A stretch of DNA of 32,000 nt from Cupriavidus necator (lineage in GTDB: Bacteria; Pseudomonadota; Gammaproteobacteria; Burkholderiales; Burkholderiaceae): NCBI RefSeq assembly GCF_016127575.1, contig NZ_CP066018.1:3390001-3422000 (forward strand), written 5' to 3'. Below the pieces are notes generated by a model. It saw only the letters and a list, made by a program, of their open reading frames with translations. It was not told the DNA's origin and made no database searches. Position numbers and translations under genes: made by a program. Of this stretch, positions 6,202 to 28,143 are shown in pieces; the first letter of the stretch is position 1, and each line of letters begins with the position of its first letter.

Positions 6202-6215
6202 TTGATCCAGCCCAA
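6202..6215. promoter_or_regulatory. FNR-like half-degenerate box TTGAT-CCAG-CCCAA
   Basis: Lies in the 518-bp divergent groEL/hydrolase intergenic region. With the preceding T it matches the 2238-2252 site at 14 of 15 positions. Confidence 0.35.
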
Positions 6216-11875: not shown

Positions 11876-11889
11876 TTGACAGGCATCAA
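11876..11889. promoter_or_regulatory. Near-consensus FNR/FixK box TTGAC-AGGC-ATCAA
   Basis: 9/10 match to TTGAT-N4-ATCAA. It lies in the 448-bp divergent region, with centre ~120 bp upstream of the lipoprotein ATG 12003 and ~330 bp from the LRAT ATG. Confidence 0.55.
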
Positions 11890-12521: not shown

Positions 12522-14822
12522 TCACTCCGTGGGCGCATCTTCGCGCAGCGCATGGAACAGCTCGTCCTCCTGCGCGCAGTGCAGCCGCAATACGGCCTCG
12601 AGCCCGTAGAGCAGCCGCTGGTACTCCCTGACCCTGCCGGCGTCTGGCCCATCCGGCGGTGAGTCGTCCGCCATCCGCTGCAGTAGCCGGATCACCCGGA
12701 AGATCTCGCGGTGCATCGCGCTCATCGCCGCCAGCGGATCCTCGCCTCCGACCAGCAGCGCGAGTTGCGGATAGAGCTGCGCGTCATCGTGCTGTTCGTG
12801 GGGCAAAAGTGTTCCGCTGAGGGATGCGCACAAGCGGCGCAGTTCCGTGCCCGCGGCGTGGCCAGGCATGGCTGGCAACCTGTCCGCGAGGCTGCGGATC
12901 TGTTCCATCAGCGGCGCCAGCGCGGCGTGCTCCTGGTTCAGGCGCTCGGCGTCGGCCGTGGACAGGCGTTCCGCCGGCACCGACGGGTCGGCGCGCAGGG
13001 CGCGCAGCGCATTGGCAATGACCAGCACATCGATGACCTCCTGCAGCATGGCGCCGGCCAGTGGCGGCAGGTAGCCGAACGCGGCGACCGCCATCGCGAC
13101 GAACGACAGGCCCATGCCGGCCATGGCGCTTTGCACGGCCAGCCGGCGCGACCGGCGGGCGATGCGCACCGCGTCCACCAGCCGGTCAAGCCGGTCCACC
13201 AGCAGCACGACATCCGCGGCTTCCGACGATGCCGCGGCACCTCGTGCGCCCATGGCCACGCCGACGTCCGCGGCGGCCAGCGCCGGTGCATCGTTCACGC
13301 CGTCGCCCACCATCAGCACAGTGCCGTCGTGGCGCGCCGCCTCGATCGCGGCAAGCTTCTGCGAGGGGGTGAGGTTGGCATGGACCTCGGTCACGCCCAG
13401 CATCGCGCCGACGGTCTCGGCGACGTCGAGCCGGTCTCCCGTGAGCATGGCCAGGCGCCGTATGCCCGCCTTGCGCAGCAAGCGCAACGCGCGCGGGGTG
13501 TCCATGCGAATCAGGTCCACGAACTGCAGTGCCCCAACCAGCACGCCGTCGACGGTGACCAGCGAGACCGAGGCGCCTTCGAAGGCCGCGCGCTGCAACA
13601 TGGCCTGGCACCACGGTGGCCCGGCATCGCCGCCGCCGGCAAAGGCGGGCGATCCCACCGCCACCACGTGCTCGCCAACCCGCCCGGCAATGCCAGCACC
13701 GGCGGTCTCGGTCACGCCTGACGGCAGGTCCAGGGCCAGGCCTCGCTCGCGCGCCGCGGTCGTGATGGCTTCGGCGACAACATGCCCGGAGGCCTGGGAC
13801 AGCGAAGCGGCGACGCGCAGCACGTCGGGCGCCGGCCATCCGGGCGCGCTCTCGATGGCCGCCAGGCGGGCCCTTCCGCCCGTCAGCGTCCCGGTCTTGT
13901 CGAAGAAGAGGATGCTCGCCTGCGACAACCTTTCAAGCGCGCCGCCGCCCTTGACCAGCACGCCGCGCCCGGCGCAACGCGACACCCCGGACACAATCGC
14001 CACCGGAACGGCCAGGATCAACGGACAAGGGGTGGCGACCACCAGCACCGCCAGCGCCCGCGCGAGTTCACCACTGGCAAGCCAGGCAAGCCCGGCGACG
14101 AGCAGGGTGACAGGCACCAGCCACAGTGCATAACGGTCGGCCAACCGCGCCGCGGGCGGGCGCTCCGCGCGGGCGGTGCGCACCAGCCTGGCGATGCCGG
14201 CGAAGGTGCTGTCTGCCGCGGTGGTCGCTGCCACCATCTCGAACGGGGTGCCGGCGTTCAGCACACTGCTGCGCACGGTCTCGCCAGGGAGTCGCTGCCG
14301 TGGCAGCGACTCGCCAGTCAGGGCAGATTCGTCCAGCGTCGCCTGGCCCAGCAATGCGCCGTCCACGGGTACGACTTCGCCATGCCGGACCAACAGGCGA
14401 TCCCCCGGACTGACCACATCGAGGGAAACCGCGCGCCATTCTCCGTCCTCGAAGCGGTTGGCGGACTGCGGGGCGCGGCTGAGCAGGGCGGACATCTCCC
14501 GCTCGGAACGGGCCTGCGCATAGTTCTCAATGGCCCTGCCGCTCTCGATCATCAGGGCCAGTACGGCAGCCGCGAGGAATTCGCCAAGCGCCAGCGCCAG
14601 CCCGATCGCCAGCAGCGCCAGGACATCGACGCCCGCTTCCTTCCGGCGCAGCGACCGCACGATGGCGACGATCAGCGCGCCGGCGACGACCAGCGCGCCA
14701 ACCGCCCAAGCGAGCCTCGCGGCGAGCGCTTCGCCGAAGGCAAAAAGCAGCAAGCCAGCGCCCAGCGTGCCGGCCGCGACTGGCAGCAAGCCGAGGTCAA
14801 ACTTGCGAAACCCGATGTGCAT
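12522..14822 (-). CDS. P1B-5-type heavy-metal P-type ATPase with C-terminal hemerythrin (HHE) domain
   Basis: [17 protein letters not shown], and transmembrane TPCP (VVATPCPLILAVP) instead of CPC. There is no N-terminal metal-binding domain. The last ~150 aa carry His/Glu hemerythrin motifs (NQEHAAL, LPHEQHDD, MHREIF, LHCAQEDELFH). Start placed at ATG 14822 (CAGGGGA upstream); the track start 14933 is a GTG without an RBS. Confidence 0.85.
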   Translation of the reverse strand: MHIGFRKFDLGLLPVAAGTLGAGLLLFAFGEALAARLAWAVGALVVAGALIVAIVRSLRRKEAGVDVLALLAIGLALALGEFLAAAVLALMIESGRAIENYAQARSEREMSALLSRAPQSANRFEDGEWRAVSLDVVSPGDRLLVRHGEVVPVDGALLGQATLDESALTGESLPRQRLPGETVRSSVLNAGTPFEMVAATTAADSTFAGIARLVRTARAERPPAARLADRYALWLVPVTLLVAGLAWLASGELARALAVLVVATPCPLILAVPVAIVSGVSRCAGRGVLVKGGGALERLSQASILFFDKTGTLTGGRARLAAIESAPGWPAPDVLRVAASLSQASGHVVAEAITTAARERGLALDLPSGVTETAGAGIAGRVGEHVVAVGSPAFAGGGDAGPPWCQAMLQRAAFEGASVSLVTVDGVLVGALQFVDLIRMDTPRALRLLRKAGIRRLAMLTGDRLDVAETVGAMLGVTEVHANLTPSQKLAAIEAARHDGTVLMVGDGVNDAPALAAADVGVAMGARGAAASSEAADVVLLVDRLDRLVDAVRIARRSRRLAVQSAMAGMGLSFVAMAVAAFGYLPPLAGAMLQEVIDVLVIANALRALRADPSVPAERLSTADAERLNQEHAALAPLMEQIRSLADRLPAMPGHAAGTELRRLCASLSGTLLPHEQHDDAQLYPQLALLVGGEDPLAAMSAMHREIFRVIRLLQRMADDSPPDGPDAGRVREYQRLLYGLEAVLRLHCAQEDELFHALREDAPTE

Positions 14823-15246
14823 GGCGAACCCGATCCCCTGCGTAACTGGCGCCGGTTGCTGGGATACTCCCGCTGATGCCTTCAGGCGATCGCAGATCCT
14901 GCCGCGCTGGCGGCTGCGCAATCCCGGCTGCACGCCGAATCAGGCACTGTGTAATGGTGATGTTAGTCCAACAGGCACCGGGCCGATAATAGCCTCGGCC
15001 GCAGGCAGGGCGCGCCAGCCAGCCCTGGAGATAGTCGATGGCTGCAGGGGCCGCGGTTCGCGGCGCCACGGAGATGATTCGGCACGGCGCGGACCCGCAG
15101 TGGCTGTCGGCGGTACTGCCGTATTCGCTCACTCCTTGATGCACGCGGCGATTACGGCGCATTTTCGGTTCAAATTGCGCTTTGGCCGGTGCCGCCCTAT
15201 ATATTTGGGGGGCGAGAAGCACTCTCAGACAATCATCGTCCATTCC

Positions 15247-16971
15247 ATGAGCAACCCTTTGGCGCCCGCGGGCAAGGTGCAGCCTTCGTCCGAACGTTCT
15301 CACTCCCTTGCCATGGCGATTGGCAGTGTGACGGTCGTTCTCGTCCTCGCGGGGGGATGCTTCTTGATGGCTACCGTCGAATGGTATCGGCAGTTCCTGG
15401 CGCCGTTGGTGCTCTTGACGGGCGCAGGCATCGGGCTCGCCGTGGGACTTTACTGGAACCGGTTGAGGAAGCTTACAGGGAGTAGTGATATCCAACGCGT
15501 GGCGGATAGCGAAGCCCAGTTGGCGGGGATCATCCGATCTTCGATGGAAGCGATCATCACCGTGGACGGTGACCAGCGCGTCGTACTGTTCAATCCCATG
15601 GCAGAAACGCTATTCGCCTGGCCGGCCGAACTTGCAATCGGGCGCTCCCTGAGCGACTTCATTCCCCACCGCTTTCGGGCCGCCCATGCAGAGCATGTGC
15701 GCCGGTTTGGGATCACGGGCGTTTCGGACCGCGAGATGGGACTCCAACGGGCGCTGTGCGCCATGCGTCGGGACGGAAGCGAGTTCCCTATCGAAGCATC
15801 CATTTCACAGATCTCTGTCGGCGAGGCCAAGTTATACACTGTGATGCTGCGCGATATCACCGAACGCGTGCGTGCTGAGGAAGCCCTGCACCGAAGCCTT
15901 CAGCTTGTGAAGGAAAGCGAGGCGCGATTGGCGGGAATTATCCGCTCCTCCATGGAAGCGATCATCACCGTGGACAATGAACAACGCGTAGTGCTGTTCA
16001 ACCCAATGGCGGAGACGTTGTTCGCCTGGCCCGCCGAACTCGCGATTGGCCGCCCCCTCGGCGACTTCATTCCCGAACGCTACCGGGCCGCTCATGAGGA
16101 GCACGTGCGTCGGTTTGGGATCACGGGCGTATCGGATCGTCAGATGGGACGTCAACGGGCACTCTACGCTCTGCGTCGTGACGGCACTGAATTCCCTATC
16201 GAAGCATCCATCTCGCAAACGGCCCACGAAGGCACGAAGCTATATACCGTGATGCTGCGTGATATCACGGAGCGGGCACGCGCGGAGGCGGCCCTGCGCC
16301 GCTCACGGGAAGAACTGCAACAGCTTTCAGATGGGATACTCGCTGCCCGCGAGGAGGAGAGGCGCCGCATTGCACGCGAGCTGCACGATGACCTGGGCCA
16401 GCGCCTGAGCGCGCTTAAGATGGACATGGCTATGCTCGGCGCGGACGTCGATGAGGGCCGTGACACAGCAGGACTGCTAGACGAGATTGGTGCCATAAAC
16501 GGCGTCATCGACAATACTGTTGCCTCGGTCCGACGCATTGCCAGTGACCTACGGCCGGCCTTGCTGGACGAGTTGGGAATGATTCCTGCCATTGAGTGGT
16601 TGGCCGATGATTTTGCCAACCGGTACGGATTGGCGGTGAGCGTGGACGGTGCCGAGGCTGACGTCCCCGCGCAGACGGCAATCGCCATGTTCCGCATTGT
16701 CCAGGAGGCATTGAGCAATGTCGTCCGGCATGCCGACGCGACCACCGTGCATATTCAGCTCACCCAGTCAGAGGGCCAACTTGTGTTGCGGGTGCAAGAC
16801 AATGGGGTGGGCTGGGACAAGGTCTCCTCCGCAAGCGGGCCACGCAAATCGCTGGGACTCCTTGGCATCCGGGAGCGGGCACGCCTTCTGGGTGGCAGCT
16901 TCACCATCGACAGCACTCCCGGCAAGGGCTTTTGCCTAATCGTGCAAATTCCCCACGAAAGGGTGGCCTGA
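15247..16971 (+). CDS. Membrane-anchored sensor histidine kinase: 2 TM, tandem FixL-like PAS, HisKA_3, HATPase_c
   Basis: The 813-aa track ORF is trimmed to ATG 15247, because the upstream part is antisense to the ATPase gene. Two hydrophobic helices with a ~7-aa loop. H-box ELHDDLGQRLSALK is NarX/DevS-type HisKA_3. N/G boxes: EALSNVVRHA, DNGVGW, GLLGIRERA. No RBS is obvious, so the start is approximate. Confidence 0.85.
   Translation: MSNPLAPAGKVQPSSERSHSLAMAIGSVTVVLVLAGGCFLMATVEWYRQFLAPLVLLTGAGIGLAVGLYWNRLRKLTGSSDIQRVADSEAQLAGIIRSSMEAIITVDGDQRVVLFNPMAETLFAWPAELAIGRSLSDFIPHRFRAAHAEHVRRFGITGVSDREMGLQRALCAMRRDGSEFPIEASISQISVGEAKLYTVMLRDITERVRAEEALHRSLQLVKESEARLAGIIRSSMEAIITVDNEQRVVLFNPMAETLFAWPAELAIGRPLGDFIPERYRAAHEEHVRRFGITGVSDRQMGRQRALYALRRDGTEFPIEASISQTAHEGTKLYTVMLRDITERARAEAALRRSREELQQLSDGILAAREEERRRIARELHDDLGQRLSALKMDMAMLGADVDEGRDTAGLLDEIGAINGVIDNTVASVRRIASDLRPALLDELGMIPAIEWLADDFANRYGLAVSVDGAEADVPAQTAIAMFRIVQEALSNVVRHADATTVHIQLTQSEGQLVLRVQDNGVGWDKVSSASGPRKSLGLLGIRERARLLGGSFTIDSTPGKGFCLIVQIPHERVA
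15511..16308 (+). repeat. Tandem in-frame duplication (period 408 bp) encoding the two PAS modules
   Basis: Copy 1 starts ~15511 and copy 2 ~15919. By my hand alignment 104 of 125 aligned residues are identical (83%). Identical 20-24 nt runs include atggaagcgatcatcaccgtggac, cggtttgggatcacgggcgt and ttccctatcgaagcatccat. Confidence 0.85.
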
Positions 16972-17281: not shown

Positions 17282-17842
17282 TCATCCGCCTGGCGCCATC
17301 TTTCCACCCATGCCCGGACCCATCCCCGGCCCCATGCCCGGACCCATGCCCGGACCCATGCCCATGCCCGGGCCCATGCCTTGGTCGTTGGCCATCGTCT
17401 GCATCATTTCCTGCATGAACGCCATGTGACTACCCGCCATGTCTTGGCACATCTGCATTTGATTTGATGGGGCGTTTCCCTTGGCGACTCTCTTGCCAGG
17501 AGCCATACGAGCAGGGCCGCCCATTTTCATCATGTCCTTTTGCATGATGGCCATTGCATCTTGCATGACCTGATGGCGTTCAGCCAAGAGGGCCTGACGC
17601 TCCTCCGGCGTTTTGGCACGCGAAAGCCGCTCTCTGATGGCACGCAGGTGGGCAACCTGGGCGTCCAGCTTTGCATCGCTGGAAACTCCGGGAGTTACGA
17701 CCGGAGCCTTATCTTGCCGCTTTTCAGGATGGTGCTGCTCATGCTCAATGCCGGTAGCCGGCGACGCCGGGAAAGCTGCTGGCGCCCACGCTAGCACGGC
17801 GGCCGCAGTGATAAGGGTAGAGAGGCGATGGTTGGTGGACAT
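17282..17842 (-). CDS. Secreted Met-rich protein with C-terminal (GPGM)n repeat; possible periplasmic Cu(I)/metal-binding or CpxP/Spy/ZraP-like protein
   Basis: 186 aa. RBS AGGAGGA. Signal peptide LITAAAVLAWAPAAFPA|SP. I counted 23 Met in the C-terminal ~105 residues. Tail: GMGPGMGMGPGMGPGMGPGMGPGMGGKM. The function is inferred from composition only. Confidence 0.7.
   Translation of the reverse strand: MSTNHRLSTLITAAAVLAWAPAAFPASPATGIEHEQHHPEKRQDKAPVVTPGVSSDAKLDAQVAHLRAIRERLSRAKTPEERQALLAERHQVMQDAMAIMQKDMMKMGGPARMAPGKRVAKGNAPSNQMQMCQDMAGSHMAFMQEMMQTMANDQGMGPGMGMGPGMGPGMGPGMGPGMGGKMAPGG
17309..17380 (-). repeat. In-frame 12-nt coding microsatellite (CATGCCCGGNCC on the + strand = GPGM), five units plus two 6-nt half-units
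   Basis: Units at 17309-20, 17321-32, 17333-44, 17345-56 and 17363-74. Half-units catgcc at 17357-62 and 17375-80. Confidence 0.85.
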
Positions 17843-17907: not shown

Positions 17908-17921
17908 TTGATTGGGATCAA
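17908..17921. promoter_or_regulatory. Perfect FNR/FixK consensus box TTGAT-TGGG-ATCAA
   Basis: 10/10 match. Centre is 72.5 bp upstream of the Met-rich protein ATG (17842). This fits a class II (-41.5) activator site with a ~30-nt leader. Confidence 0.75.
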
Positions 17922-18214: not shown

Positions 18215-18658
18215 TTACGCCCGTTGCATGCTTGATTTGGCGCGCTCCGCGACGTCGAACACGAGCATGCCAGCCACCATTGCTGCCACAAAGCCAATGG
18301 CCTTCGGATAGCCAGCGCCCAGGGCAACCAGCGCGGGACCAGGGCAGAAGCCGGCCAGACCCCAGCCGACGCCGAAGGCGGCGCTGCCCAGTACCAGCCG
18401 CAGCGTTACGGCCGTGCTGGCCGGCAGTTGCACAGGCAGCCCCAGGAAGGAGTGTTTGCGGTGTTTGGCGATGAGGAAGGCGAGCGAGCCAATGGCAATG
18501 GCACCGGCCATCACAAAAGCGAGGGACGGGTCCCAGGTTCCTGCAAGGTCAAGAAAGCCCAGCACCTTGGCCGGGTTGGCCATGCCGGAGACCATCAGGC
18601 CAATGCCAAATAGCAGGCCTGCGACGAGTGCAGTCATGGCGGTCATATCAGCCTCCAA
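18215..18658 (-). CDS. YeeE/YedE-family (DUF395) half-size sulfur-compound transporter subunit
   Basis: 147 aa, four hydrophobic helices, GFCPGPALVALG motif. Overlaps the upstream paralogue by 11 nt. Confidence 0.8.
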   Translation of the reverse strand: MEADMTAMTALVAGLLFGIGLMVSGMANPAKVLGFLDLAGTWDPSLAFVMAGAIAIGSLAFLIAKHRKHSFLGLPVQLPASTAVTLRLVLGSAAFGVGWGLAGFCPGPALVALGAGYPKAIGFVAAMVAGMLVFDVAERAKSSMQRA

Positions 18659-19082
18659 TCAGGTGCCGTTGCACGAAGACAGTCAGGAATCCCGCCACCA
18701 TGAAGGTGAGGGTGGCGACCAGCGAGCGGATGGAGCCGCGCGAGATGCCGCACACGCCATGGCCGCTGGTGCAGCCGCTGGCGTAGCGGGTGCCAAGGCC
18801 GACCAGGAAGCCGGCGGCCAGGATTTCGCCCCAGCTTGCCTGGATATCCGCAATGGCGGGCTTGCCGAGCAGGCTCGCAATCACAGGAGCGCCAACCAGG
18901 CCAGCGAGGAAGGTCAGGCGCCAGGCCATGTCCTTTCGAGGCAGGCTAAGCAGGCCGCCGAAGATGCCGCTGATGCCGGCAATGCGGCCGTTGAACAGCA
19001 GCAGCACAGCGGCCGCCGCACCGATGATGAGCCCGCCGACCAGTGACAGGCCGGGCGTGAAGTTAGCGAGGTCAATCAGCAT
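18648..19082 (-). CDS. YeeE/YedE-family (DUF395) half-size sulfur-compound transporter subunit
   Basis: 144 aa. GTRYASGCTSGHGVCGISRGS motif typical of the family. Overlaps the bigR-like gene by 7 nt. Confidence 0.8.
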   Translation of the reverse strand: MLIDLANFTPGLSLVGGLIIGAAAAVLLLFNGRIAGISGIFGGLLSLPRKDMAWRLTFLAGLVGAPVIASLLGKPAIADIQASWGEILAAGFLVGLGTRYASGCTSGHGVCGISRGSIRSLVATLTFMVAGFLTVFVQRHLIGG

Positions 19083-19414
19083 GTCGCCTCCTGATCGGGG
19101 TTGGCACAGAACTGTTCATAAAGGACCGCCATGACGGCAAGCGCCTGGGGGCTCGCCACCGAATAGAAGATGTTCTTGCCGTCACGGCGCGTGGCCACCA
19201 GGCTGTTCTCGCGCAGCACACCGAGCTGTTGAGACAGCGTCGGCTGCCGGATGCCGAGCTGTTCCTCCAGCTCACCGACAGACAGCTCGCCTTGGGACAG
19301 GCGGCACATCAGCAGCAGGCGGTCCGGATTGGCAAGCACCTTGAGCAGGGTACAGGCCTGCGCCGCAGCAGCTTGCATGCTGGCGAGGTCGATGGCGGGG
19401 TGGGGCTGGTCCAT
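19076..19414 (-). CDS. bigR: ArsR-family winged-helix repressor, BigR-like redox/persulfide switch
   Basis: 112 aa. wHTH region SVGELEEQLGIRQPTLSQQLGVLR. Cys37 (LLMCRL) and Cys103 (EQFCAN) are 66 residues apart, the same spacing as the Cys42/Cys108 pair I recall for Xylella BigR. The genomic context is YeeE x2 plus a divergent blh. Confidence 0.8.
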   Translation of the reverse strand: MDQPHPAIDLASMQAAAAQACTLLKVLANPDRLLLMCRLSQGELSVGELEEQLGIRQPTLSQQLGVLRENSLVATRRDGKNIFYSVASPQALAVMAVLYEQFCANPDQEATC

Positions 19415-19437
19415 AGGTCGTTTACATTTTGCTTGTT

Positions 19438-19478
19438 AATATTATATTGAAAAATAGAATGTATGTGAATAGAATGTA
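19438..19478. promoter_or_regulatory. AT-rich divergent promoter/operator candidates: palindrome AATAT-T-ATATT and direct repeat AATAGAATGTA x2
   Basis: Palindrome at 19438-19448. 11-nt direct repeats at 19453-63 and 19468-78 (15-bp period). These lie in the only 84 bp between bigR and blh, a segment that is strikingly AT-rich for this genome. Confidence 0.4.
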
Positions 19479-19498
19479 CTGCATCCAAGGAGGCGAGC

Positions 19499-20359
19499 AT
19501 GCACCCGACTATCCAGCCGTTCTTCGACCCTGCGACCTGGACTGTGACGTACGTGGTCTTTCAGGAGGGGCGCCCCGAGTGCGCCATCATCGACTCGGTG
19601 CTGGACTACGACCCCAAGGCGGGTCGGACATCGACGGCAAGTGCTGATAAGGTTGTTGCGTTTGTGCGCGCGCATGGACTGAGAGTCGAGTGGATTCTCG
19701 AGACGCACGCGCATGCTGACCACCTGTCTGCCGCGCCGTACCTGAAGCGACACCTGGGTGGCCAGACAGCAATAGGCCAGAACATCCGCAACGTACAGGG
19801 GGTCTTCAAGACGCTCTTTAACCTGGAGCCTGAGTTTCGGCTCGACGGGTCGCAGTTCGACCACCTGTTTGACGACGGAGCGACGTTTGCCATCGGCGGC
19901 CTGACCGGCAGGGCGATTCATGTGCCAGGGCATACACCCGCCGACATGGCTTACCAGATTGGGGACGCGGTCTTTGTCGGCGATACGCTGTTCATGCCGG
20001 ACGTCGGCACGGCTCGCTGCGATTTCCCGGGCGGCGACGCACACGAGTTGTATCGCTCCATCCGCAAGCTGCTGGACCTGCCGAGCAATACACGGCTCTT
20101 TATGTGTCACGACTATCCGCCCGAGGGGCGCGGGCCTGCATGGGAAACGACGGTGCGCGCTCAGCGCGAAGGCAATATCCACGTGCATGACGGCGTGAGC
20201 GAGGAACAGTTCGTGGCCATGCGCCGGGCGCGCGATGCGACGCTGGCGATGCCGACGCTGCTTCTGCCGTCGGTGCAAGTCAATATACGAGCCGGGGAGT
20301 TGCCGCCGCCCGATGCGAATGGCGTTCGCTATCTAAAAATCCCTCTGGACGTCATCTGA
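19499..20359 (+). CDS. blh: MBL-fold hydrolase, Blh/ETHE1-like persulfide dioxygenase candidate
   Basis: 286 aa. RBS AAGGAGG. Metal motif THAHADH and a later HVPGHTPAD. Divergent from bigR, as in BigR-type sulfide detoxification loci. Confidence 0.8.
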   Translation: MHPTIQPFFDPATWTVTYVVFQEGRPECAIIDSVLDYDPKAGRTSTASADKVVAFVRAHGLRVEWILETHAHADHLSAAPYLKRHLGGQTAIGQNIRNVQGVFKTLFNLEPEFRLDGSQFDHLFDDGATFAIGGLTGRAIHVPGHTPADMAYQIGDAVFVGDTLFMPDVGTARCDFPGGDAHELYRSIRKLLDLPSNTRLFMCHDYPPEGRGPAWETTVRAQREGNIHVHDGVSEEQFVAMRRARDATLAMPTLLLPSVQVNIRAGELPPPDANGVRYLKIPLDVI

Positions 20360-20755: not shown

Positions 20756-21559
20756 TCACTTCGAAATCGCCCCGCTCAGAAGATGTTCCTCTGCATAAGG
20801 AAACACAACTTCCGGATTAGGGCGAATCAGCTCAGCGTCCTTGTGCGCATAGTGAAGGCGGGTCAGTAGATCCTTGATGACGCTGAGGCGTGCGACATGC
20901 TTGTCGTCGGCGCGCACGACGTTCCATGGCACGATGTCGCTGGTTCGAGCAAACATCTCGTTCCGTGCCTTACTGTATTTCTTCCAAAGCGATACCGCTT
21001 GTTCGTCAATGGGGCTGACTTTCCACTGTTTTAGCGGGTCCCGGCGGCGCTCTTCGATGCGCTTCTTCTGTTCGGCCTTGCTGATGTCAAGGTAGTACTT
21101 GATAAGACGAATTCCGGAACGCACGAGCATCCGTTCGAACTCTGGGACACTTGCCATGAACTCCTCATGCTCGTCCTTGGTGCAGAAGCCCATCACATGT
21201 TCCACACCGGCCCGGTTGTACCAACTGCGATTGAAAAGGGTGAACTCGCCGGCCGCAGGCAGCTCGGCCGCATAGCGGCGGAAGTACCAGGAGCCTCGGT
21301 CACGGTCGGATGGCTTCCCCAGTGCGACGACGCGCGTTTCACGCGGACTGAGGTGTTCGACAATGCGCTTGATGGTCCCATCCTTCCCAGACGCATCCCT
21401 TCCCTCAAAAATCACCAGAATCCGGTCGCTGCAGGAAATGAAGTGCTTCTGTAGTTTGACCAGCTCGATTTGAAGCAGGTGGAGATTCTCCTCATAGCTG
21501 TCATGGGAGAGGGCGCTTGCCTCGGATGGAGCCGTCTTGCTACTTGTCTTCATTTTCAT
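20756..21559 (-). CDS. ppk2: Polyphosphate kinase 2 (single-domain PPK2)
   Basis: 267 aa. RBS GGGAGGTG. Walker-A-like FEGRDASGKDGTIK, followed by FNRSWYNRAGVEHVMGF and the lid region. Confidence 0.9.
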   Translation of the reverse strand: MKMKTSSKTAPSEASALSHDSYEENLHLLQIELVKLQKHFISCSDRILVIFEGRDASGKDGTIKRIVEHLSPRETRVVALGKPSDRDRGSWYFRRYAAELPAAGEFTLFNRSWYNRAGVEHVMGFCTKDEHEEFMASVPEFERMLVRSGIRLIKYYLDISKAEQKKRIEERRRDPLKQWKVSPIDEQAVSLWKKYSKARNEMFARTSDIVPWNVVRADDKHVARLSVIKDLLTRLHYAHKDAELIRPNPEVVFPYAEEHLLSGAISK

Positions 21560-21990
21560 GGTTCACCTCCCTTGAGTCGGGCGCATCGGGTGGGAAAGGG
21601 TGGGGCTTTCCAGGTGAAAGCGGGGTAACTTTTTCGTTGAGCAACAGCTCCAGCGAAGGGCGGTCTACGACCTCCTGTTCGAGCAGTAGCTTTGCCAGCG
21701 CGTCTGGCTTGTGCCGGTTTGCCAGCAATGTTTGCTTCACCCGCTGACTGGCGTCGCCCAGAATCGTCCGCACTTCTGCATCAATGATTTGCGCAGTACT
21801 CTCGCTGTACTCTTTGCGTTGCCGAGGCATTGGCAGCTTCGAGGTCCTGGACCAGATTGGGGTCGTTGACCCGAAGCGTGGAGAAGGGGTGGTCTCCCTT
21901 TCCCTGGCGCAACATCTCTTCGACCTGTGGCTTGGGGAGCAGAGTCTCAATGCCAGTGGTGACACGAGCTCGTAAAGAGCTGTGGCGCAA
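21540..21990 (-). pseudogene. ftsH: C-terminal remnant of an FtsH-family protease (frameshifted, N-terminally truncated)
   Basis: One frame reads RKEYSESTAQIIDAEVRTILGDASQRVKQTLLANRHKPDALAKLLLEQEVVDRPSLELLL, the FtsH C-terminal helical region (compare ..SDETARIIDQEV...L...ETID). An upstream piece, VTTG...GDHPFSTL...PNLVQDL, is in another frame. The AAA and zinc-protease cores are absent. Confidence 0.6.
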
Positions 21991-22020: not shown

Positions 22021-22287
22021 TCAGGTCTCTCCTTGAAGGCTGTTGTGTAACCATGCAAAGAATGCCCCGGCAGCGAAGAACCACACCGCAAACACAAAGG
22101 CTGGATAGATGATGGACCACCACGATACTGATTCGCCGGTCTGAAGGCGCCGGAAATCGAGCCCGTGAAAGAGCGCGTTCATGAAATTCATGAAGGGCTC
22201 AGGAAGAACCATCCAGACGAGCGTGCATAGAACGTAGAACAGCACGACCGTGGCGGATAGCGTCAAACCAGTCTTGAAGGGTTTCAT
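22021..22287 (-). CDS. Small multi-pass membrane protein (resembles what RefSeq labels DUF5676; recalled from memory)
   Basis: Track ORF trimmed to ATG 22287 (GGAGG 6 nt upstream). 88 aa with hydrophobic segments LTLSATVVLFYVLCTLVWMVL and IIYPAFVFAVWFFAAGAFFAW. Confidence 0.6.
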   Translation of the reverse strand: MKPFKTGLTLSATVVLFYVLCTLVWMVLPEPFMNFMNALFHGLDFRRLQTGESVSWWSIIYPAFVFAVWFFAAGAFFAWLHNSLQGET

Positions 22288-22323: not shown

Positions 22324-22992
22324 TCAATGAGGACGCGTCCGCGGAACATCTCGGGCTGAGATATGCGGAATGAACGCTGGTGTCTTTTGGCGATATTCCT
22401 CATATGCTTGCCCGAACTCGGCCAGTGCGTCCTGCTCCTCCGACTTGGCCAGCCGAACATACATCCAGACCAGGATGGGGAACATCACCAGAGTGACTAT
22501 CGTCGGCCACTGCAGCAGGAAGCCGAACATAATCAGGACGAACGCGACATACTGGGGGTGCCTCATGCGCGCATAGAGACCAGTGGTCGCCAGGCGGTGC
22601 TGCTGCTGGGCCAGGTACAGAATGCGCCAGGCGGAAGACAGCATGATGAAGCCGCCAAAAATCAAGATGTCGCTGGCGATGTGAAATGGCCCCAGGTGCG
22701 GGTTGCCCCTCCAGCCGAAAATCATCTCCGGAAGATGACCGGCATCATGCGAGAGGAAGTCGATTCCCGGGAATTTCGCCGAAAGCCACGGTAGCAGGAG
22801 ATAGATACTCAGGGGGATGCCATACATCTCTGTAAAGAGCGCCACAATGAACGCGGAGAACGCGCCAAACGAGCGCCAGTCGCGCTGGGTCTTCGGCTTG
22901 GTGAAGCTGAAGGCGAAGATGATGAAGACAGCTGAGTTGATAATGACCAGCGACCAGAGACCGTAGCTGGATTGTGTTTCGGGTTGCATCAT
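22324..22992 (-). CDS. Integral-membrane ICMT/PEMT-family SAM-dependent methyltransferase
   Basis: 222 aa, multi-pass. Family motif TGLYARMRHPQYVAF, followed by EEQDALAEFGQAYEEYRQKTPAFIP. The start overlaps the DUF2933 stop (ATGATG/TGA at 22987-22992). Confidence 0.8.
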   Translation of the reverse strand: MMQPETQSSYGLWSLVIINSAVFIIFAFSFTKPKTQRDWRSFGAFSAFIVALFTEMYGIPLSIYLLLPWLSAKFPGIDFLSHDAGHLPEMIFGWRGNPHLGPFHIASDILIFGGFIMLSSAWRILYLAQQQHRLATTGLYARMRHPQYVAFVLIMFGFLLQWPTIVTLVMFPILVWMYVRLAKSEEQDALAEFGQAYEEYRQKTPAFIPHISARDVPRTRPH

Positions 22993-23249
22993 CGCTCTCC
23001 TTTGGCGTTCGTGTCCTTGGTGGCGTCATCCGGTCCGTGACCGTGTCGATGTCCACCGTGCATGAAGATGTGCATTAAGGGGCAGGCGGCCAGCAGAAGA
23101 AATGGCAGGAACTGAATGACGTGTGCCCGGTGTTCAGTCCATAGGAAGTAGGCAATCACCAGCAGAAAGCCAATCATGACCAGCTTGGACCTGGCCACGG
23201 TGCGCAGTGCGTCGCCAGGCCGCTCATGACCGTTGTGGTCGTGGTTCAT
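22989..23249 (-). CDS. DUF2933-like His-rich small membrane protein
   Basis: 86 aa. N-terminal MNHDHNGHE, two TM helices, then ACPLMHIFMHGGHRHGHG. Confidence 0.7.
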   Translation of the reverse strand: MNHDHNGHERPGDALRTVARSKLVMIGFLLVIAYFLWTEHRAHVIQFLPFLLLAACPLMHIFMHGGHRHGHGPDDATKDTNAKGER

Positions 23250-23439: not shown

Positions 23440-23626
23440 CTGCGTTTCGTATATCGCGCTCGCACTGTCGCGAAAGGCGAAGACTCAACCACACCACAAC
23501 GACCGGACAGGACAGCAGGAGTAGGCCAACCAGTATGGTGAACGGTGTCAGCCCAAACCGGTAGACGATAGCTGCCGCGAGTAGCATTGCAAAGGCAGCG
23601 CAAATCCATGCCACCGGGTGTTTCAT
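23411..23626 (-). CDS. Small two-TM membrane protein translationally coupled to the Cu ATPase
   Basis: 71 aa. Its ATG overlaps the ATPase stop (ATGA, 23623-23626). Two hydrophobic helices, then a charged tail [19 protein letters not shown]. Confidence 0.55.
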
Positions 23627-26106
23627 CTCGCCTCCAGGCTGGCAATTCTGGCGCCAAGTCGTACACGCTTCAGCAATGCGGAGTTGGCTACCACACTCAA
23701 TGAGGACAGTGCCATTGCTGCTGCGGCAAAGATGGGGTTCAGGAGTCCAAGTGCGGCGATAGGGATGCCGATGGTGTTGTAGATGAACGCCCAGAAGAGG
23801 TTCTGTTTGATTTTGCGCATCGTCGCGCGGGACAGCTCAATGGCGGCAACCACGTCACGCACGTCATCGCGAATGAGGATGATGCTCCCAGTTTCCTTCG
23901 CGACATCCGAGCCTGAGCCGATGGCAATGCCGATGTCCGCTGCGGCAAGCGCCGGTGCGTCATTGACGCCGTCTCCCACCATGGCCACGACCTCCCCTTG
24001 CTTCTGTAATGCGTGAATGGTCTCGACCTTGTCTTCCGGCATCACCTCGGCAATGACATGCTCAATGCCAACCTGCCGGCCGATTGCCTCGGCGGTGCGG
24101 CGGTTGTCACCGCTCAGTAGCACAACCTTGATGGCGCGCGCCTTCAATGCCGCGATTGCCTCGCTCGCTTCCGGTTTCACAGTGTCAGCCACGGCCACTA
24201 CGCCGAGCAATTGTGTGCCGGCGCCGACCAGCATGGCTGTCTTGCCATCGGCCTCGAGCTTCCCGAGTACAGATTCGGCCGATTCGATTGGGATGCCTTG
24301 GCGTGCAAAGAGACGCCGGTTGCCCAGCCAGACTTGCTGACCGTCGACGAGGCCCTGAATGCCCATGCCAGACAATGCGCTGATGCTGGCTGCCTTGGGA
24401 ATGGTGAGCGCGCGATACTGTGCGGCGCGCACGATGGCTTCGCCCAAAGGGTGCTCGGACCCGGCTTCCACAGCGGCAGCAAGAGTCAGCAGGTCAGATT
24501 TCTCTCGCCCAGAAAGGGGGATGACATCGGTCAAGGTCGGCTCTCCGCGCGTAATCGTCCCGGTCTTGTCAAAGACAACCGCGGTGAGCTTCTCGGCCCG
24601 CTCCAGCACTTCACCGCCGCGTATCAGGATGCCGTTGTCCGCGCCCTTGCCGACGCCGACCATCAGCGCTGCTGGCGTGGCGACGCCTAGCGCGCAGGGG
24701 CAGGAGATAATCAGAACAGCCACGAATGCGAGCAGTCCCTGCGGAAAATGACCGGCGACGGTCCATCCCACTAATGCCAGCATCGCGACCGAAACAACCG
24801 CAGGTACGAAGTAGCCGGTGACCTGGTCCGCCAGTCTCTGAATCTGCGCGGTGCTGGCCTGGGCGTCCTCGACCATCCTGATAATCTGAGCGAGAGCGGT
24901 GTCCGCTCCGATTTTTGTGGCCTGGAAGGTGAAGGCGCCACTGCGGTTTAGCGTGCCGCCAATGACAGCGGCACCAGGCTTCTTTTCCACGGGCATCGAC
25001 TCGCCGGTCAGCATCGATTCATCGACACTGGATTGGCCATCGATAACCTTGCCATCAGTGGGAATCTTCTCGCCGGGGCGTACAACGACCGCTTCGCCCA
25101 CCATGATGCTTTCAGCCGGGATTTCCACCTCCGTCCCGTCGCGAAGCACGTGAGCGACGGCGGGGCGCAGGTCGAGCAGGCGTCGAACAGCGGCGGAGGA
25201 TTTCTTCTTGATGATTTCCTCCATGTATTTCCCCAGCAGCACGAAGGCGATAATGACCGCCGACACCTCAAAGTAGACGTCTCGCTCTTCGACCTTGACG
25301 GGCAGCCAGGACGGAAAGAACAGCACTACTACGCTGTAGAAGTAGGCGACGGACGTCCCCAGGGCGATGAGGAAGTCCATATTGATATTGCGCGTCCGGA
25401 TGGCGTTCCATGCGCCCTTGTAGAAGCTCCAGCCGCCAATGAACTGGACCGGCGTGACGAGAAGGAATAGCCACATCCCCCACGTGAACCAAGGCAGGGC
25501 GGGAATCGGGGCCCAAGTCACGAGCGTCGCGCCGGCTGCCAGTGCCAGGAAGGCGCCAGCCCGCAGCACCGCCAGCGCGAGCACGCCCGTGAGCGCAATG
25601 GTCACGCGCGTCTTCATGGCTTTCAACTCGCTCTCTGGCGACTCGAAGGTCCGAAGGCAGCTCTCGCTGCAGAAGTAGTACTTGCGGTTGCCACGCTCGG
25701 CGGAGAGGGCCGTAGCCTTGTCCACCATCATTCCGCAAATAGGGTCCTTGGCGAGTTGCTTGGCGGCGTGGGAAGCAAGCGCGGGCGTCGCCGCAGGGAT
25801 AGGAGCGACGCCGGGTGGGCTAGGACTGCGGGAGGGCCCAGCCGAGCTACGCCTATCAACGGGGTGAAGAACATATTTCGCCGGGTTGGCTAGGAAAACC
25901 TGCTCACAGTGTGGAGAGCAGAACCAGTATCGCTTCTGGTCGAGCTCCGTGCTGGTAGCGGCCTCCCGTGGGGAGATCTCCATGCCACAGACCGGGTCAC
26001 GCACGAGCTGCTGCGAGGCGGCCGGGCCTGCGGCGGCCGTTGGAGCTGCCTGGGCTTCGGTGAGGCCGTAACTCCCCCCATTAGGGGTGGTGGACTTGGT
26101 CGGCAT
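23623..26106 (-). CDS. Cu(I)/Ag(I)-type P1B-1 P-type ATPase with two N-terminal YHS/TRASH domains
   Basis: 827 aa. RBS AAGGAGAGG. Two copies of DP(V/I)CGM...(Y/W)FCS..C. Transmembrane CPC (IISCPCALG), YN (FIYNTIGIP) and [12 protein letters not shown] signature. DKTGTIT and [10 protein letters not shown] present. No HMA (CxxC) domain. Confidence 0.9.
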
Positions 26107-26188
26107 TCCATCCTCTCCTTGGGGCTATTAAGAGGGGCTGCAGCGCATAAATTACATTTTCATTCTGGGTGACCAGTCGATTTGCTTC

Positions 26189-26202
26189 TTGATTTCAATC
26201 AA
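26189..26202. promoter_or_regulatory. Perfect FNR/FixK consensus box TTGAT-TTCA-ATCAA
   Basis: 10/10 match. Centre is 89.5 bp upstream of the ATPase ATG (26106), within the 240-bp gap after the SAM synthetase gene. Confidence 0.75.
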
Positions 26203-26346
26203 GCGTTCATGGGTGGTCGGGGGTGCGGTGGGTGCCGATTCAGGAATGAATGTCGAACGCCGCATGACGTATGTGTTTGAAGGCTGGGAAGCCGCTCGGC
26301 CAGCCGATGCCGGCGCCGAGGTTGCTTTGCTCCCCATACACCGGGC

Positions 26347-27531
26347 CTAGAAGACCGCTACCGTGCCATAGACCAGCTCATTGACCAAGGCAGGAAGCTG
26401 CGCCAGCTGTAGCGTCGCGAGTTCACGAACTTGCTGCTCCTGGGCGCTCGAGAGGCCGCGCTCGGCCACGACATCAATGGCAAACAGTTGGGGCTGGTCG
26501 ATGGGGCGTCCAATTCCGGAGAGAAGCCGGACGACGACTTCATCCGCGCCATCCACGCTTGCCTGAATATGAGAGGCTAACCGGTGGGCGAGCACGTTGT
26601 AGAGCTTGCCGACATGTGACGCCGGGTTCTTGCCCGCTGCGGCCTCCAGCGACATTGGCCGATAGGGGGTAATCAGGCCATTGACCCGGTTTCCGCGGCC
26701 GACCTGGCCGTCATCACCATGCTCAGCACTTAAGCCAGTGACCGTCAGGTAAATCCCGCTTTCGTCGCAAGCATCCCGGCGATCGAGGGTATTGATTGCA
26801 ATCTCACAGTCGGTGCCGATGTGCTCGGCCAGATACGACCCAATCCGGCCCTTGAGGATGAAGTACTCATCGACGCCTTGGACGCATCGGTCGACAAAGG
26901 CCAGCGCAAGAGTGAGACGGTGATGCGCACCCAGCCGACTCCCCATCACCTTGTAATCGAGGCCCGCCGCCTCAAACATTCCCCTGTCGGCACGTGAGCG
27001 CAGAAGGTCGGCAATCAACAGCACCGCTCTTTCAAGCGATGAGAGTGGCGCATAGCCGACGCCAAAGGATGTGTCATTGGACAGCGAAAGAGACGCTGCA
27101 TTGGTCACGCGCCGGAGGTTCGGGGCCGAGGGGCGGAGGATTGGCTCGATCCGGATGTCATTGCCAATGTCGCCCAAGGATGTCGCCAGGTACTCGCGAA
27201 TGGCCTGCTCGACAACTAGCTCGGCCTTGGCCGACGGAAGTTCGGTAACAGGGCCGGATACTATCAACCGCGTTGAGCGCAGCACTTTGCCACCGCCGAA
27301 CTTTGGCGCGCTCATGCCGCCGATGAGTAGCGCCTTGTCCAGATTGAAGTGCTGGACTGCGCCATAGGCTTCGAAGTATGCGCGGCACAAGGCGCGAGCC
27401 GCAGCTTCGACAGCCCCATCGCATAGGCTATCGGGATGTCCGATGCCCTTGTGCTCGCACATTTCCGTCTGCTCACCTCGCCATGACGGCCCACGCGAGA
27501 TAGCAATCGCTATGTTCTCCATGATGGTCAT
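26347..27531 (-). CDS. Archaeal-type S-adenosylmethionine synthetase (methionine adenosyltransferase, MJ1208/PF01941-like)
   Basis: 394 aa. RBS AAGGGGG. Motif EHKGIGHPDSLCDG near the N-terminus, with length and overall pattern as in archaeal-type MAT. It does not resemble bacterial MetK. Confidence 0.75.
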   Translation of the reverse strand: MTIMENIAIAISRGPSWRGEQTEMCEHKGIGHPDSLCDGAVEAAARALCRAYFEAYGAVQHFNLDKALLIGGMSAPKFGGGKVLRSTRLIVSGPVTELPSAKAELVVEQAIREYLATSLGDIGNDIRIEPILRPSAPNLRRVTNAASLSLSNDTSFGVGYAPLSSLERAVLLIADLLRSRADRGMFEAAGLDYKVMGSRLGAHHRLTLALAFVDRCVQGVDEYFILKGRIGSYLAEHIGTDCEIAINTLDRRDACDESGIYLTVTGLSAEHGDDGQVGRGNRVNGLITPYRPMSLEAAAGKNPASHVGKLYNVLAHRLASHIQASVDGADEVVVRLLSGIGRPIDQPQLFAIDVVAERGLSSAQEQQVRELATLQLAQLPALVNELVYGTVAVF

Positions 27532-27630: not shown

Positions 27631-27644
27631 TTGACGCGAATCAA
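27631..27644. promoter_or_regulatory. Near-consensus FNR/FixK box TTGAC-GCGA-ATCAA
   Basis: 9/10 match. Centre is 106.5 bp upstream of the SAM synthetase ATG (27531) and 46.5 bp upstream of the ATG (27684) of the decayed formate/nitrite transporter gene. A weaker box, TTGCC-TAGC-ATCAA, follows at 27660-27673. Confidence 0.6.
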
Positions 27645-27683: not shown

Positions 27684-28143
27684 ATGACTTTCGATTGCCA
27701 ACTAAGTCGCGGCAGGGCCGCTGGTGCACTATTAGGCTCATGTGGCCTGGCATTTGAAGGTTGCGAAAACGCCGAGCGGGTGCAAACCGTCGGGTGGCCA
27801 AGGCGCGCCTGCCGCTGCTGCAAATGGCGATGCTTGGGCATACTGGCCGGTGCTTTCATCGGGCGGGGAGCGCTGAATTCCGTACGGGTTGCCAGCGACC
27901 CAAGTTTAGGGTTCGCCACCAGCTGCGTGATTGGTAGCTAGCCTGGTGTTTTCATTAGGGCTGCTGCTGGTAGTGCCCGGCGCCAAGCTATTCACTGCCA
28001 ACAACCTATTAGTGATGGCCTGGGCCGACCGGCGAATCAGCAGCTACGAGCTGCTGCGCAATTTTGGGGTTGTGAGCTTGACCAACTTTGCCGAAGCGGC
28101 TGGACTCGCATTGCTGGTTGGTTGCCAGGGTATCCGGTGCTGA
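27684..28143 (+). pseudogene. Formate/nitrite transporter (FocA/NirC family) pseudogene: multiple frameshifts, in-frame stop, 3' truncated
   Basis: Consecutive FNT blocks sit in different frames. The pieces are KARLPLLQMAMLG, then LGILAGAFIGRGAL..SDPSLGF ending at TAG 27939. The last piece is LVFSLGLLLVVPGAKLFTANNLLVMAWADRRISSYELLRNFGVVSLTNFAEAAGLALLV. Confidence 0.6.

Follow-up and report, generated by a model that had tools for sequence, protein, structure and literature searches.

What is a perfect binding site for a regulator of the FNR family doing in front of a gene for a copper pump? The question is raised by a stretch of 32,000 nucleotides from Cupriavidus necator (assembly GCF_016127575.1, contig NZ_CP066018.1, positions 3,390,001 to 3,422,000 of the forward strand), called the window below, in which the palindrome TTGATTTCAATCAA occupies positions 26189-26202 (+), upstream of the ATPase gene copP1 on the minus strand. 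The ATPase protein is found exactly on chromosome 1 of C. necator (Ralstonia eutropha) H16 (AM260479.1, about 2.15 Mb), of which the window is the reverse complement. The FNR class II promoters of E. coli FNR, Pseudomonas Anr and rhizobial FixK carry the consensus TTGAT-N4-ATCAA centred near -41.5, and a first-pass annotation had taken the palindrome for a 10/10 match to it, a reading on which a second inspection of the sequence and a pattern search agree. We consider it likely that the palindrome is a working site of the FNR/Anr/FixK/Dnr class, serving a class II promoter from which copP1 and the genes downstream would be expressed under oxygen limitation.

Perfect sites of this kind are rarely produced by chance, as had been anticipated. 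The pattern search found exactly two of them in the window, starting at 17908 and 26189, against a mean of 0.02 perfect sites per window in 100 dinucleotide-preserving shuffles, among which none (0/100) contained two. Both boxes are intergenic, again in line with the annotation, and the centre of the copP1 box (26195.5) lies 89.5 bp from the ATG of the ATPase (26106, minus strand), which is the distance originally given. When up to two mismatches are allowed, the window holds 14 sites against 4.3 expected, and nine of these 14 are intergenic, whereas intergenic DNA makes up 17.6% of the window (binomial P = 1.4e-4), an enrichment to be read with the higher AT content of intergenic DNA, which favours the motif.

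On the gene strand, the predicted FNR-family box (26189-26202, minus strand), whose half-sites are invariant across orthologous promoters, opens a series of elements in the order TTGATTGAAATCAA, 21 nt, CAGAAT, 41 nt, AAGGAGAGGA, 4 nt and ATG. The predicted -10 hexamer CAGAAT (26162-26167, minus strand), read from the spacer sequence 21 nt past the box, retains the two critical -10 positions, an A at position 2 and a T at position 6; it would set the box centre at about -40.5 to -41.5 and the start of transcription near 26154-26155. No -35 element was seen in the copP1 promoter, and a box centred at about -41 together with the missing -35 hexamer gives the geometry of class II. The ribosome-binding site AAGGAGAGGA (26111-26120, minus strand), which precedes ATG 26106, is kept in three alignments of relatives. 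An Rfam search of the whole window returned no RNA element, so that no riboswitch accounts for the copP1 spacer, and an inverted-repeat search reported no other operator-like palindrome in it. A simple sigma-70 promoter and terminator scan of positions 25900-26500 also found nothing, its -10 rule being stricter than FNR-dependent promoters require.

A palindrome sets no direction by itself, and FNR represses some promoters. Bound FNR might thus repress, or it might drive an antisense transcript into the neighbouring gene for methionine adenosyltransferase (MAT). Two asymmetries of the spacer indicate instead a promoter directed towards copP1: the GC content is 48% between the box and the copP1 ATG versus 64% on the other side of the box, and a -10-like hexamer is present on the gene side only, the mirror (plus-strand) side having TGCGGT at class II spacing. 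Since the xAxxxT hexamer on the gene side is moreover conserved, and the promoter scan detected no strong independent promoter overlapping the box, we regard repression or antisense transcription as very improbable.

Conserved half-sites and a free spacer at a fixed promoter distance are the pattern to be expected of a site in use, and this is what the promoters of relatives present. In a five-way alignment of promoters whose ATPases are at 100, 90, 87, 82 and 68% identity, no contiguous block is invariant except the start codon and the half-sites CTTGA and ATCAA, while the N4 spacer reads TGAA, AGGC, TAGC, CCGT or ACGT in the five versions. The box is TTGACAGGCATCAA in a compost-metagenome copy (L089, ATPase about 90% identical), TTGACTAGCATCAA in another metagenome copy (L099, 87%) and TTGACCCGTATCAA in a copy with an 82% identical ATPase (L100), where the upstream gene is a different, divergent one and no MAT lies upstream; in these three relatives the flanks have diverged while the box persists. 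Variovorax paradoxus (L022, ATPase 68%) has an independent perfect site, TTGATACGTATCAA, 66.5 bp before the ATG. Past every box, at 20-22 nt, there is an xAxxxT hexamer: CAGAAT in H16, TAGACT in L089, CAGACT in L099, CACACT in L100 and TACGCT in Variovorax. The class II placement proposed in the first-pass annotation gains support from these hexamers, each with its A at position 2 and T at position 6. Among Cupriavidus genomes the box is identical in six copies; it is kept where an insertion sequence parts MAT from the pump, and also where the pump has been deleted and the genes DUF2933-ICMT-DUF5676-FtsH-PPK2 remain behind the same promoter.

With known FNR class II promoters, the copP1 promoter has in common the consensus, the intergenic position, a weak -10 at 20-22 nt without a -35, half-sites that are conserved around a free spacer, and the presence of more such sites before nearby stress genes. 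In sequence, half-site conservation and -10 spacing it would therefore pass for a predicted member of the class; a difference is that H16 offers five candidate regulators.

Might the palindrome nevertheless be inert in H16, a chance occurrence or a relic of a mobile cassette, with copP1 transcribed by read-through from MAT or from an unrecognised constitutive or metal-responsive promoter? No terminator was found between MAT and copP1, and some read-through is possible. The gene module also decays quickly in Cupriavidus, as judged from the loss or truncation of the ATPase in several strains and from the truncation of FtsH in H16, and a sigma-70-like arrangement, TCGACT-18-TGTAAT, can be read downstream of the box. 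This arrangement was rejected as a promoter because its -10 is without the essential A2 and has not been kept in the compost-metagenome copy. An inert palindrome would moreover not be expected to keep its half-sites while spacer and flanks diverge, nor to be retained both in L100, which has no MAT upstream, and in strains that have lost the ATPase but not the downstream genes; and only 0.02 perfect sites are expected per window. Taken together, these observations make an inert site improbable. Among the Cupriavidus copies, those of C. necator N-1, H850 and CP068436 have a truncated or deleted pump.

The box is a property of a lineage rather than of the ATPase family. In species-representative genomes the closest relatives of the ATPase are only 65-76% identical, and they occur here and there in Betaproteobacteria, Nitrospirota, cyanobacteria and archaea, a distribution which indicates that the gene is mobile. 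The FNR-type box is wanting in most of 160 related loci; a box ancestral to the family was rejected on this ground, and FNR-type control is accordingly lineage-specific. Some isolated matches were also recorded. One-mismatch matches in L060 and L051 lie inside coding sequence and were dismissed. Further perfect TTGAT-N4-ATCAA sites occur 0.8-3.9 kb upstream of related ATPases; among them are those of L017 (position 2865), L025 (2399), L106 (1650) and L154 (716), at 0.8-2 kb, and the identical site TTGATATACATCAA shared by two cyanobacterial loci (L028 135-148 and L059 1623-1636). A Pfam scan of the Variovorax neighbourhood gave no hypoxia signature.

What kind of pump does this promoter precede? 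The ATPase open reading frame (23623-26106, minus strand, 827 codons) begins at ATG 26106; an in-frame stop lies 18 nt upstream of it, and no other possible start comes between the two. From product name, chromosomal position and accession order we infer that it is H16_A1976 (copP1); the only other gene with that product name, copP2 (H16_A3668), is expected far off on the chromosome. The 827-aa form has a ribosome-binding site and relatives align from its residues 1-37, whereas in the original H16 annotation (CAJ93077.1, 702 aa) the start is placed 125 codons too far into the gene, so that one YHS domain is lost and the other is truncated. Both features that had been ascribed to the protein, a copper-exporter type and YHS heads in place of an HMA domain, were borne out. 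It contains the motifs SCPCALG, DKTGT, AFIYN and MALSS, and a set of the CPC/YN/MxxSS type is the signature of P1B-1 ATPases for Cu(I)/Ag(I). It scores 601.5 bits against the TIGR01511 model of copper-translocating ATPases (cut-off 397), and its nearest solved structures are the CopA proteins of Archaeoglobus (AfCopA) and Legionella (LpCopA). The Pfam scan found YHS in two stretches of the ATPase, the best at residues 35-79, with a TRASH-type match at 124-156, and no HMA domain. With its two N-terminal heads and the retained CPC/YN/MxxSS motifs, copP1 would belong to the YHS/TRASH-headed subtype 'P1B-1b', which a survey of Rhizobiales placed in a clade apart from FixI (PMC5552934).

The FixI/CcoI (CopA2-type) ATPases, which feed copper to the cbb3 oxidase, had been put forward as a comparison. 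The closest known case of a copper pump under FNR control is indeed of this type, the hemN-fixIS operon of Herbaspirillum seropedicae with its perfect FNR box (PMC3759049). Here too a P1B-1 Cu(I) ATPase stands behind a perfect FNR box in a betaproteobacterium, and its expression would be tied to oxygen status rather than to copper. The head of copP1, however, consists of two YHS/TRASH domains and not of HMA, its neighbours are MAT, DUF2933, ICMT, DUF5676, FtsH and PPK2, and no FixG/H/S or cbb3 (ccoNOQP) gene was found among the gene calls covering most of the approximately 45 kb examined. The likeness consequently stands as an analogy but fails as membership, there being neither a ccoGHS context nor an HMA head, and we rejected copP1 as a FixI/CcoI-type pump on both grounds.

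Published expression data are consistent with a regulation unlike that of an ordinary copper exporter, as the annotation had suspected. In RNA-seq of H16 growing on fructose, copP1 rises from 64 reads per kilobase per million (RPKM) during growth to 1303 in the nitrogen-depleted phase of polyhydroxybutyrate (PHB) accumulation, which is a 20-fold increase (log2 4.35), while in the same comparison copP2 goes down by log2 4.7 and copA (H16_B2185) by log2 4.6, about 25-fold; copZ and copDCBA are described as likewise higher in the growth phase (PMC3734047). Because copP1 goes up while the canonical copper genes go down, it is not co-regulated with them.

The second perfect box brings another gene into the same frame. 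The predicted site TTGATCCCAATCAA (gene strand; 17908-17921, minus strand), with TACCTT 21 nt past it, is centred 72.5 bp before ATG 17842 of a gene for a secreted His/Met-rich protein of 186 aa (17282-17842, minus strand). This protein has a signal peptide, the motifs HHPE and AKTPEERQ and Met-Gly-Pro repeats, and no match in Pfam or NCBIfam. Its homologues flank YHS-ATPases: they stand directly beside the pump in two species of Aromatoleum and in a metagenome-assembled genome (MAG) of Pseudomonas (L008, L047, L010; BLASTP E = 7e-7 and 2e-7), and they follow ICMT in two further loci (L027, L034); compared directly, the 186-aa protein and the Met-rich protein of L051 showed no significant similarity. 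Since the 186-aa protein is homologous to pump neighbours elsewhere, both perfect boxes serve, in our reading, one conserved copper module. A third predicted box, TTGATTCGCGTCAA (gene strand; 27631-27644, minus strand), has one mismatch and lies 106.5 bp before the ATG of MAT, a distance which is the same in L089, L096 and L097 and is 90.5 bp in the 87% relative L099.

Further sites accompany stress genes. Just beyond the left end of the window there are three TTGAT-N4-GTCAA sites versus 0.04 expected, located 91.5 and 65.5 bp before two genes for universal stress proteins (USPs) and 223.5 bp before a PNPOx-family gene. Inside the window, the one-mismatch site TTGACAGGCATCAA at 11876-11889 repeats the copP1-promoter box of the compost relative (L089 4960-4973), spacer included; a probable lipoprotein start (ATG 12003) follows after about 120 bp, and an LRAT-family gene is 322 bp away. 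The sites TTGATCCATCCCAA and TTGATCCAGCCCAA at 2239-2252 and 6202-6215, almost the same in sequence and each with two mismatches, are both intergenic, one of them 79.5 bp before a nitroreductase start and the other between the genes for GroEL and an alpha/beta hydrolase, and this pair may be a variant operator for another CRP/FNR paralogue.

The genes around the module resemble those of a low-oxygen locus. According to Pfam, the rest of the window encodes two nitroreductases, a phosphoribosyltransferase, a BON protein, GroEL, an alpha/beta hydrolase, a DksA-type zinc finger protein, an APH/AAA_33 protein, a P1B ATPase with a hemerythrin tail and a PAS histidine kinase, and beyond window position 1 (L098 12758-20747) there follow a polyhydroxyalkanoate (PHA) synthase, three USP genes, DUF1488, alanine dehydrogenase, a TPM phosphatase and the PNPOx-family gene. 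Judged by these families, the window and the adjoining stretch resemble a low-oxygen gene set of about 45 kb of the lxa/DosR kind. In the low-oxygen-activated (lxa) locus of Burkholderia cenocepacia, expression of the genes increases 2- to 240-fold at 6% oxygen, and an FNR/Anr-like inverted repeat is common to them (Sass et al. 2013, PMC3721108). The two loci have in common their large size and lower GC content, USPs, acetoacetyl-CoA reductase and PHA synthase, BON ('phospholipid-binding') proteins, nitroreductase, Zn protease, a cation ATPase, a metallo-beta-lactamase (MBL) hydrolase, sensor kinases and an FNR/Anr-like inverted repeat at many intergenic points; gene content and motif thus agree, with the H16 locus matching by domain families only. 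A difference is that the ATPase of the lxa locus, BCAM0318, is compared in that paper with a member of the M. tuberculosis DosR regulon rather than with a copper pump. The H16 stretch examined showed no CRP/FNR gene.

Some other genes of the locus deserve a mention. The hemerythrin-tailed P1B-type ATPase (12522-14822, minus strand; hemerythrin domain C-terminal), which scores best with TIGR01512, a Cd/Zn-type subfamily, is divergent from the PAS-PAS-HisKA_3 sensor kinase (about 15139-16971, plus strand), and the spacer that they share contains no FNR-type site at up to two mismatches. At 18215-20359, an ArsR/HTH_5 regulator and two YeeE/YedE-type membrane proteins (Sulf_transp, DUF6691) are divergent from a gene of metallo-beta-lactamase fold, a cluster which we take to recall the BigR/Blh-type clusters of sulfide detoxification; at the matching place relatives carry an HTH_5-rhodanese fusion and an MBL gene. 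Finally, a fragment of 65 aa of a formate/nitrite transporter (Form_Nir_trans; 27946-28143, plus strand), divergent from MAT, is probably the remnant of a pseudogene.

Which member of the FNR family would read the copP1 box, and in answer to which signal? It might be a paralogue that does not sense oxygen directly, such as an NO sensor of the Dnr/NnrR type, a FixK-type protein below a two-component system or a reporter of starvation or redox state, in which case denitrification intermediates or stationary-phase stress would control copP1. Five Fnr-like proteins have been reported for H16 (PMC3759049), the nearby sites are of the TTGAT-N4-GTCAA variant common for Anr/Dnr/FixK, a PAS histidine kinase is encoded within the locus, and the induction of copP1 in the nitrogen-depleted PHB phase goes along with that of hmp-like and assimilatory nitrate/nitrite genes. 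On the other hand, the content of the locus (USPs, nitroreductases, BON, PhaC, Ald) is that of an oxygen-limitation regulon, the window contains no NO-specific genes, and paralogues are inseparable by sequence alone. We hold such a paralogue to be an unlikely reader of the site, though a more plausible alternative than an inert palindrome.

Several other observations, besides the possible read-through from MAT, count against the proposal that the box is a working site of oxygen-type control. The -10 candidates are weak matches that keep only A2 and T6, and no -10-like hexamer was found at class II spacing from the MAT box. Because the Cupriavidus copies are closely related, only about four sequences of the footprint are informative, and other Betaproteobacteria with relatives of the ATPase (Pseudogulbenkiania, Aromatoleum, Thiobacillus) have no such box. 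The one change in copP1 expression that was found is that of the nitrogen-depleted PHB phase, for which oxygen is unreported and which another signal could explain. Moreover, the literature on C. necator yielded no start-site, binding or oxygen-shift data for copP1. Apart from the growth-phase RNA-seq supplement, nothing usable came to light on H16_A1974-A1980 or copP1, on start-site maps or on transcriptomes under oxygen limitation or anoxia, and copP1 is absent from the supplement of a 2024 fitness paper.

The origin of the arrangement can be approached through the genes that travel with the pump. MAT, copP1, DUF2933, ICMT, DUF5676, the FtsH remnant and PPK2 are all on one strand, in that order, in a part of the window (15 to 28.5 kb) where the GC content drops from about 0.68 to about 0.60. 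The module begins with MAT, an archaeal-type S-adenosylmethionine (SAM) synthetase by Pfam and NCBIfam (26347-27531, minus strand). After copP1 come a small DUF2933 membrane protein (22989-23249, minus strand), conserved beside the ATPase and probably in the same transcription unit, a membrane methyltransferase of the ICMT family (22324-22992, minus strand), a small DUF5676 membrane protein (22021-22287, minus strand) known from gene calls and neighbourhood comparison, and the C-terminal remnant of an FtsH-type protease (Peptidase_M41 end; 21540-21830, minus strand), for which the relatives compared (L087, L089, L094) carry a full FtsH-like gene of 646 aa at the matching place. The polyphosphate kinase 2 gene PPK2 (20756-21559, minus strand), assigned by Pfam and by comparison with relatives, is the last of the conserved module. 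The MAT-ICMT pairing is repeated in the 87% metagenome relative (L099), and MAT follows ICMT in a Nitrospirota MAG (L018). The presence of an archaeal-type MAT beside ICMT suggests a dedicated SAM supply for an unspecified methylation step linked to the copper pump.

ICMT frequently adjoins the pump across phyla, and the cassette MerR-(Cu ATPase)-cupredoxin-DUF2933-ICMT is known as a recurrent, island-borne copper-resistance cassette of marine Gammaproteobacteria (PMC8478169). The Cupriavidus copy has the same ATPase-DUF2933-ICMT core, often found on islands or plasmids and patchy across phyla, but neither a cupredoxin gene nor one for MerR or CsoR; present instead are FNR-type boxes together with FtsH, PPK2 and a dedicated SAM synthetase. 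In one relative (L051/L107) the pump is preceded by a CsoR gene and a palindrome, whereas no member of the MerR and CsoR families is among the called genes of the H16 stretches examined (window and adjoining), so that the module does not have the adjacent sensor gene with operator by which a metal-controlled cassette is recognised. Because MerR or CsoR adjoin the cassette elsewhere and are missing from the H16 stretches, we see the Cupriavidus module as rewired: it has the appearance of a copper cassette from which the metal sensor was lost and which gained FNR-type boxes, a SAM synthetase, FtsH and PPK2. This suggests that a mobile copper cassette was placed in a low-oxygen locus rich in stress genes and was rewired to an oxygen-type signal.

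How would such a promoter work? The analysis establishes the site with its conservation and spacing, the gene families, the accompanying sites and an expression that is uncoupled from the copper regulon. We infer regulator binding, start site, oxygen signal, operon extent and physiological purpose, and propose the following scenario. The regulator would become active, most likely under oxygen limitation or denitrifying conditions, and its dimer would bind TTGAT-N4-ATCAA about 41 bp before the transcription start, where it would recruit RNA polymerase to a promoter with a weak -10 (CAGAAT) and no -35. This would switch on the Cu(I)-exporting YHS-type ATPase and, probably, DUF2933-ICMT-DUF5676-(FtsH remnant)-PPK2, while separate FNR-type boxes would co-regulate the SAM synthetase and the secreted His/Met-rich partner of the pump. 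Cu(I) attacks iron-sulfur clusters and copper is more toxic without oxygen; denitrifiers, in turn, need copper for nitrous oxide reductase and cbb3 oxidase. The purpose may accordingly be to shield Fe-S enzymes from Cu(I), to supply periplasmic copper enzymes (N2O reductase or cbb3 oxidase), or both. A bolder and rather doubtful idea is that MAT, the YHS-ATPase, DUF2933, ICMT, DUF5676, FtsH, PPK2 and the secreted partner together make up a self-contained, anoxia-specific defence against copper, or against copper and sulfide. FNR would then turn on Cu(I) export along with a dedicated SAM supply for the membrane methyltransferase and polyphosphate-driven regeneration of nucleotides, the latter powering both when respiration fails; if this were true, the module would constitute a distinct physiological system, more than a pump with an unusual promoter.

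Each ingredient of the copP1 finding is already known, and no report of the copP1 box or of oxygen control of copP1 was found in the literature. The analysis marks a lxa-like locus of about 45 kb in an industrial organism that is often cultured under oxygen limitation. It also provides an example of regulatory rewiring, in which a mobile cassette that stands beside MerR or CsoR elsewhere carries here FNR-type boxes on the pump and on its periplasmic partner. If the proposed control is true, a copper pump outside the FixI/CcoI class would be gated by an oxygen-type regulator, and this would show that bacteria can forestall the copper stress of anaerobic life, or direct copper to their anaerobic enzymes, without awaiting a metal signal.

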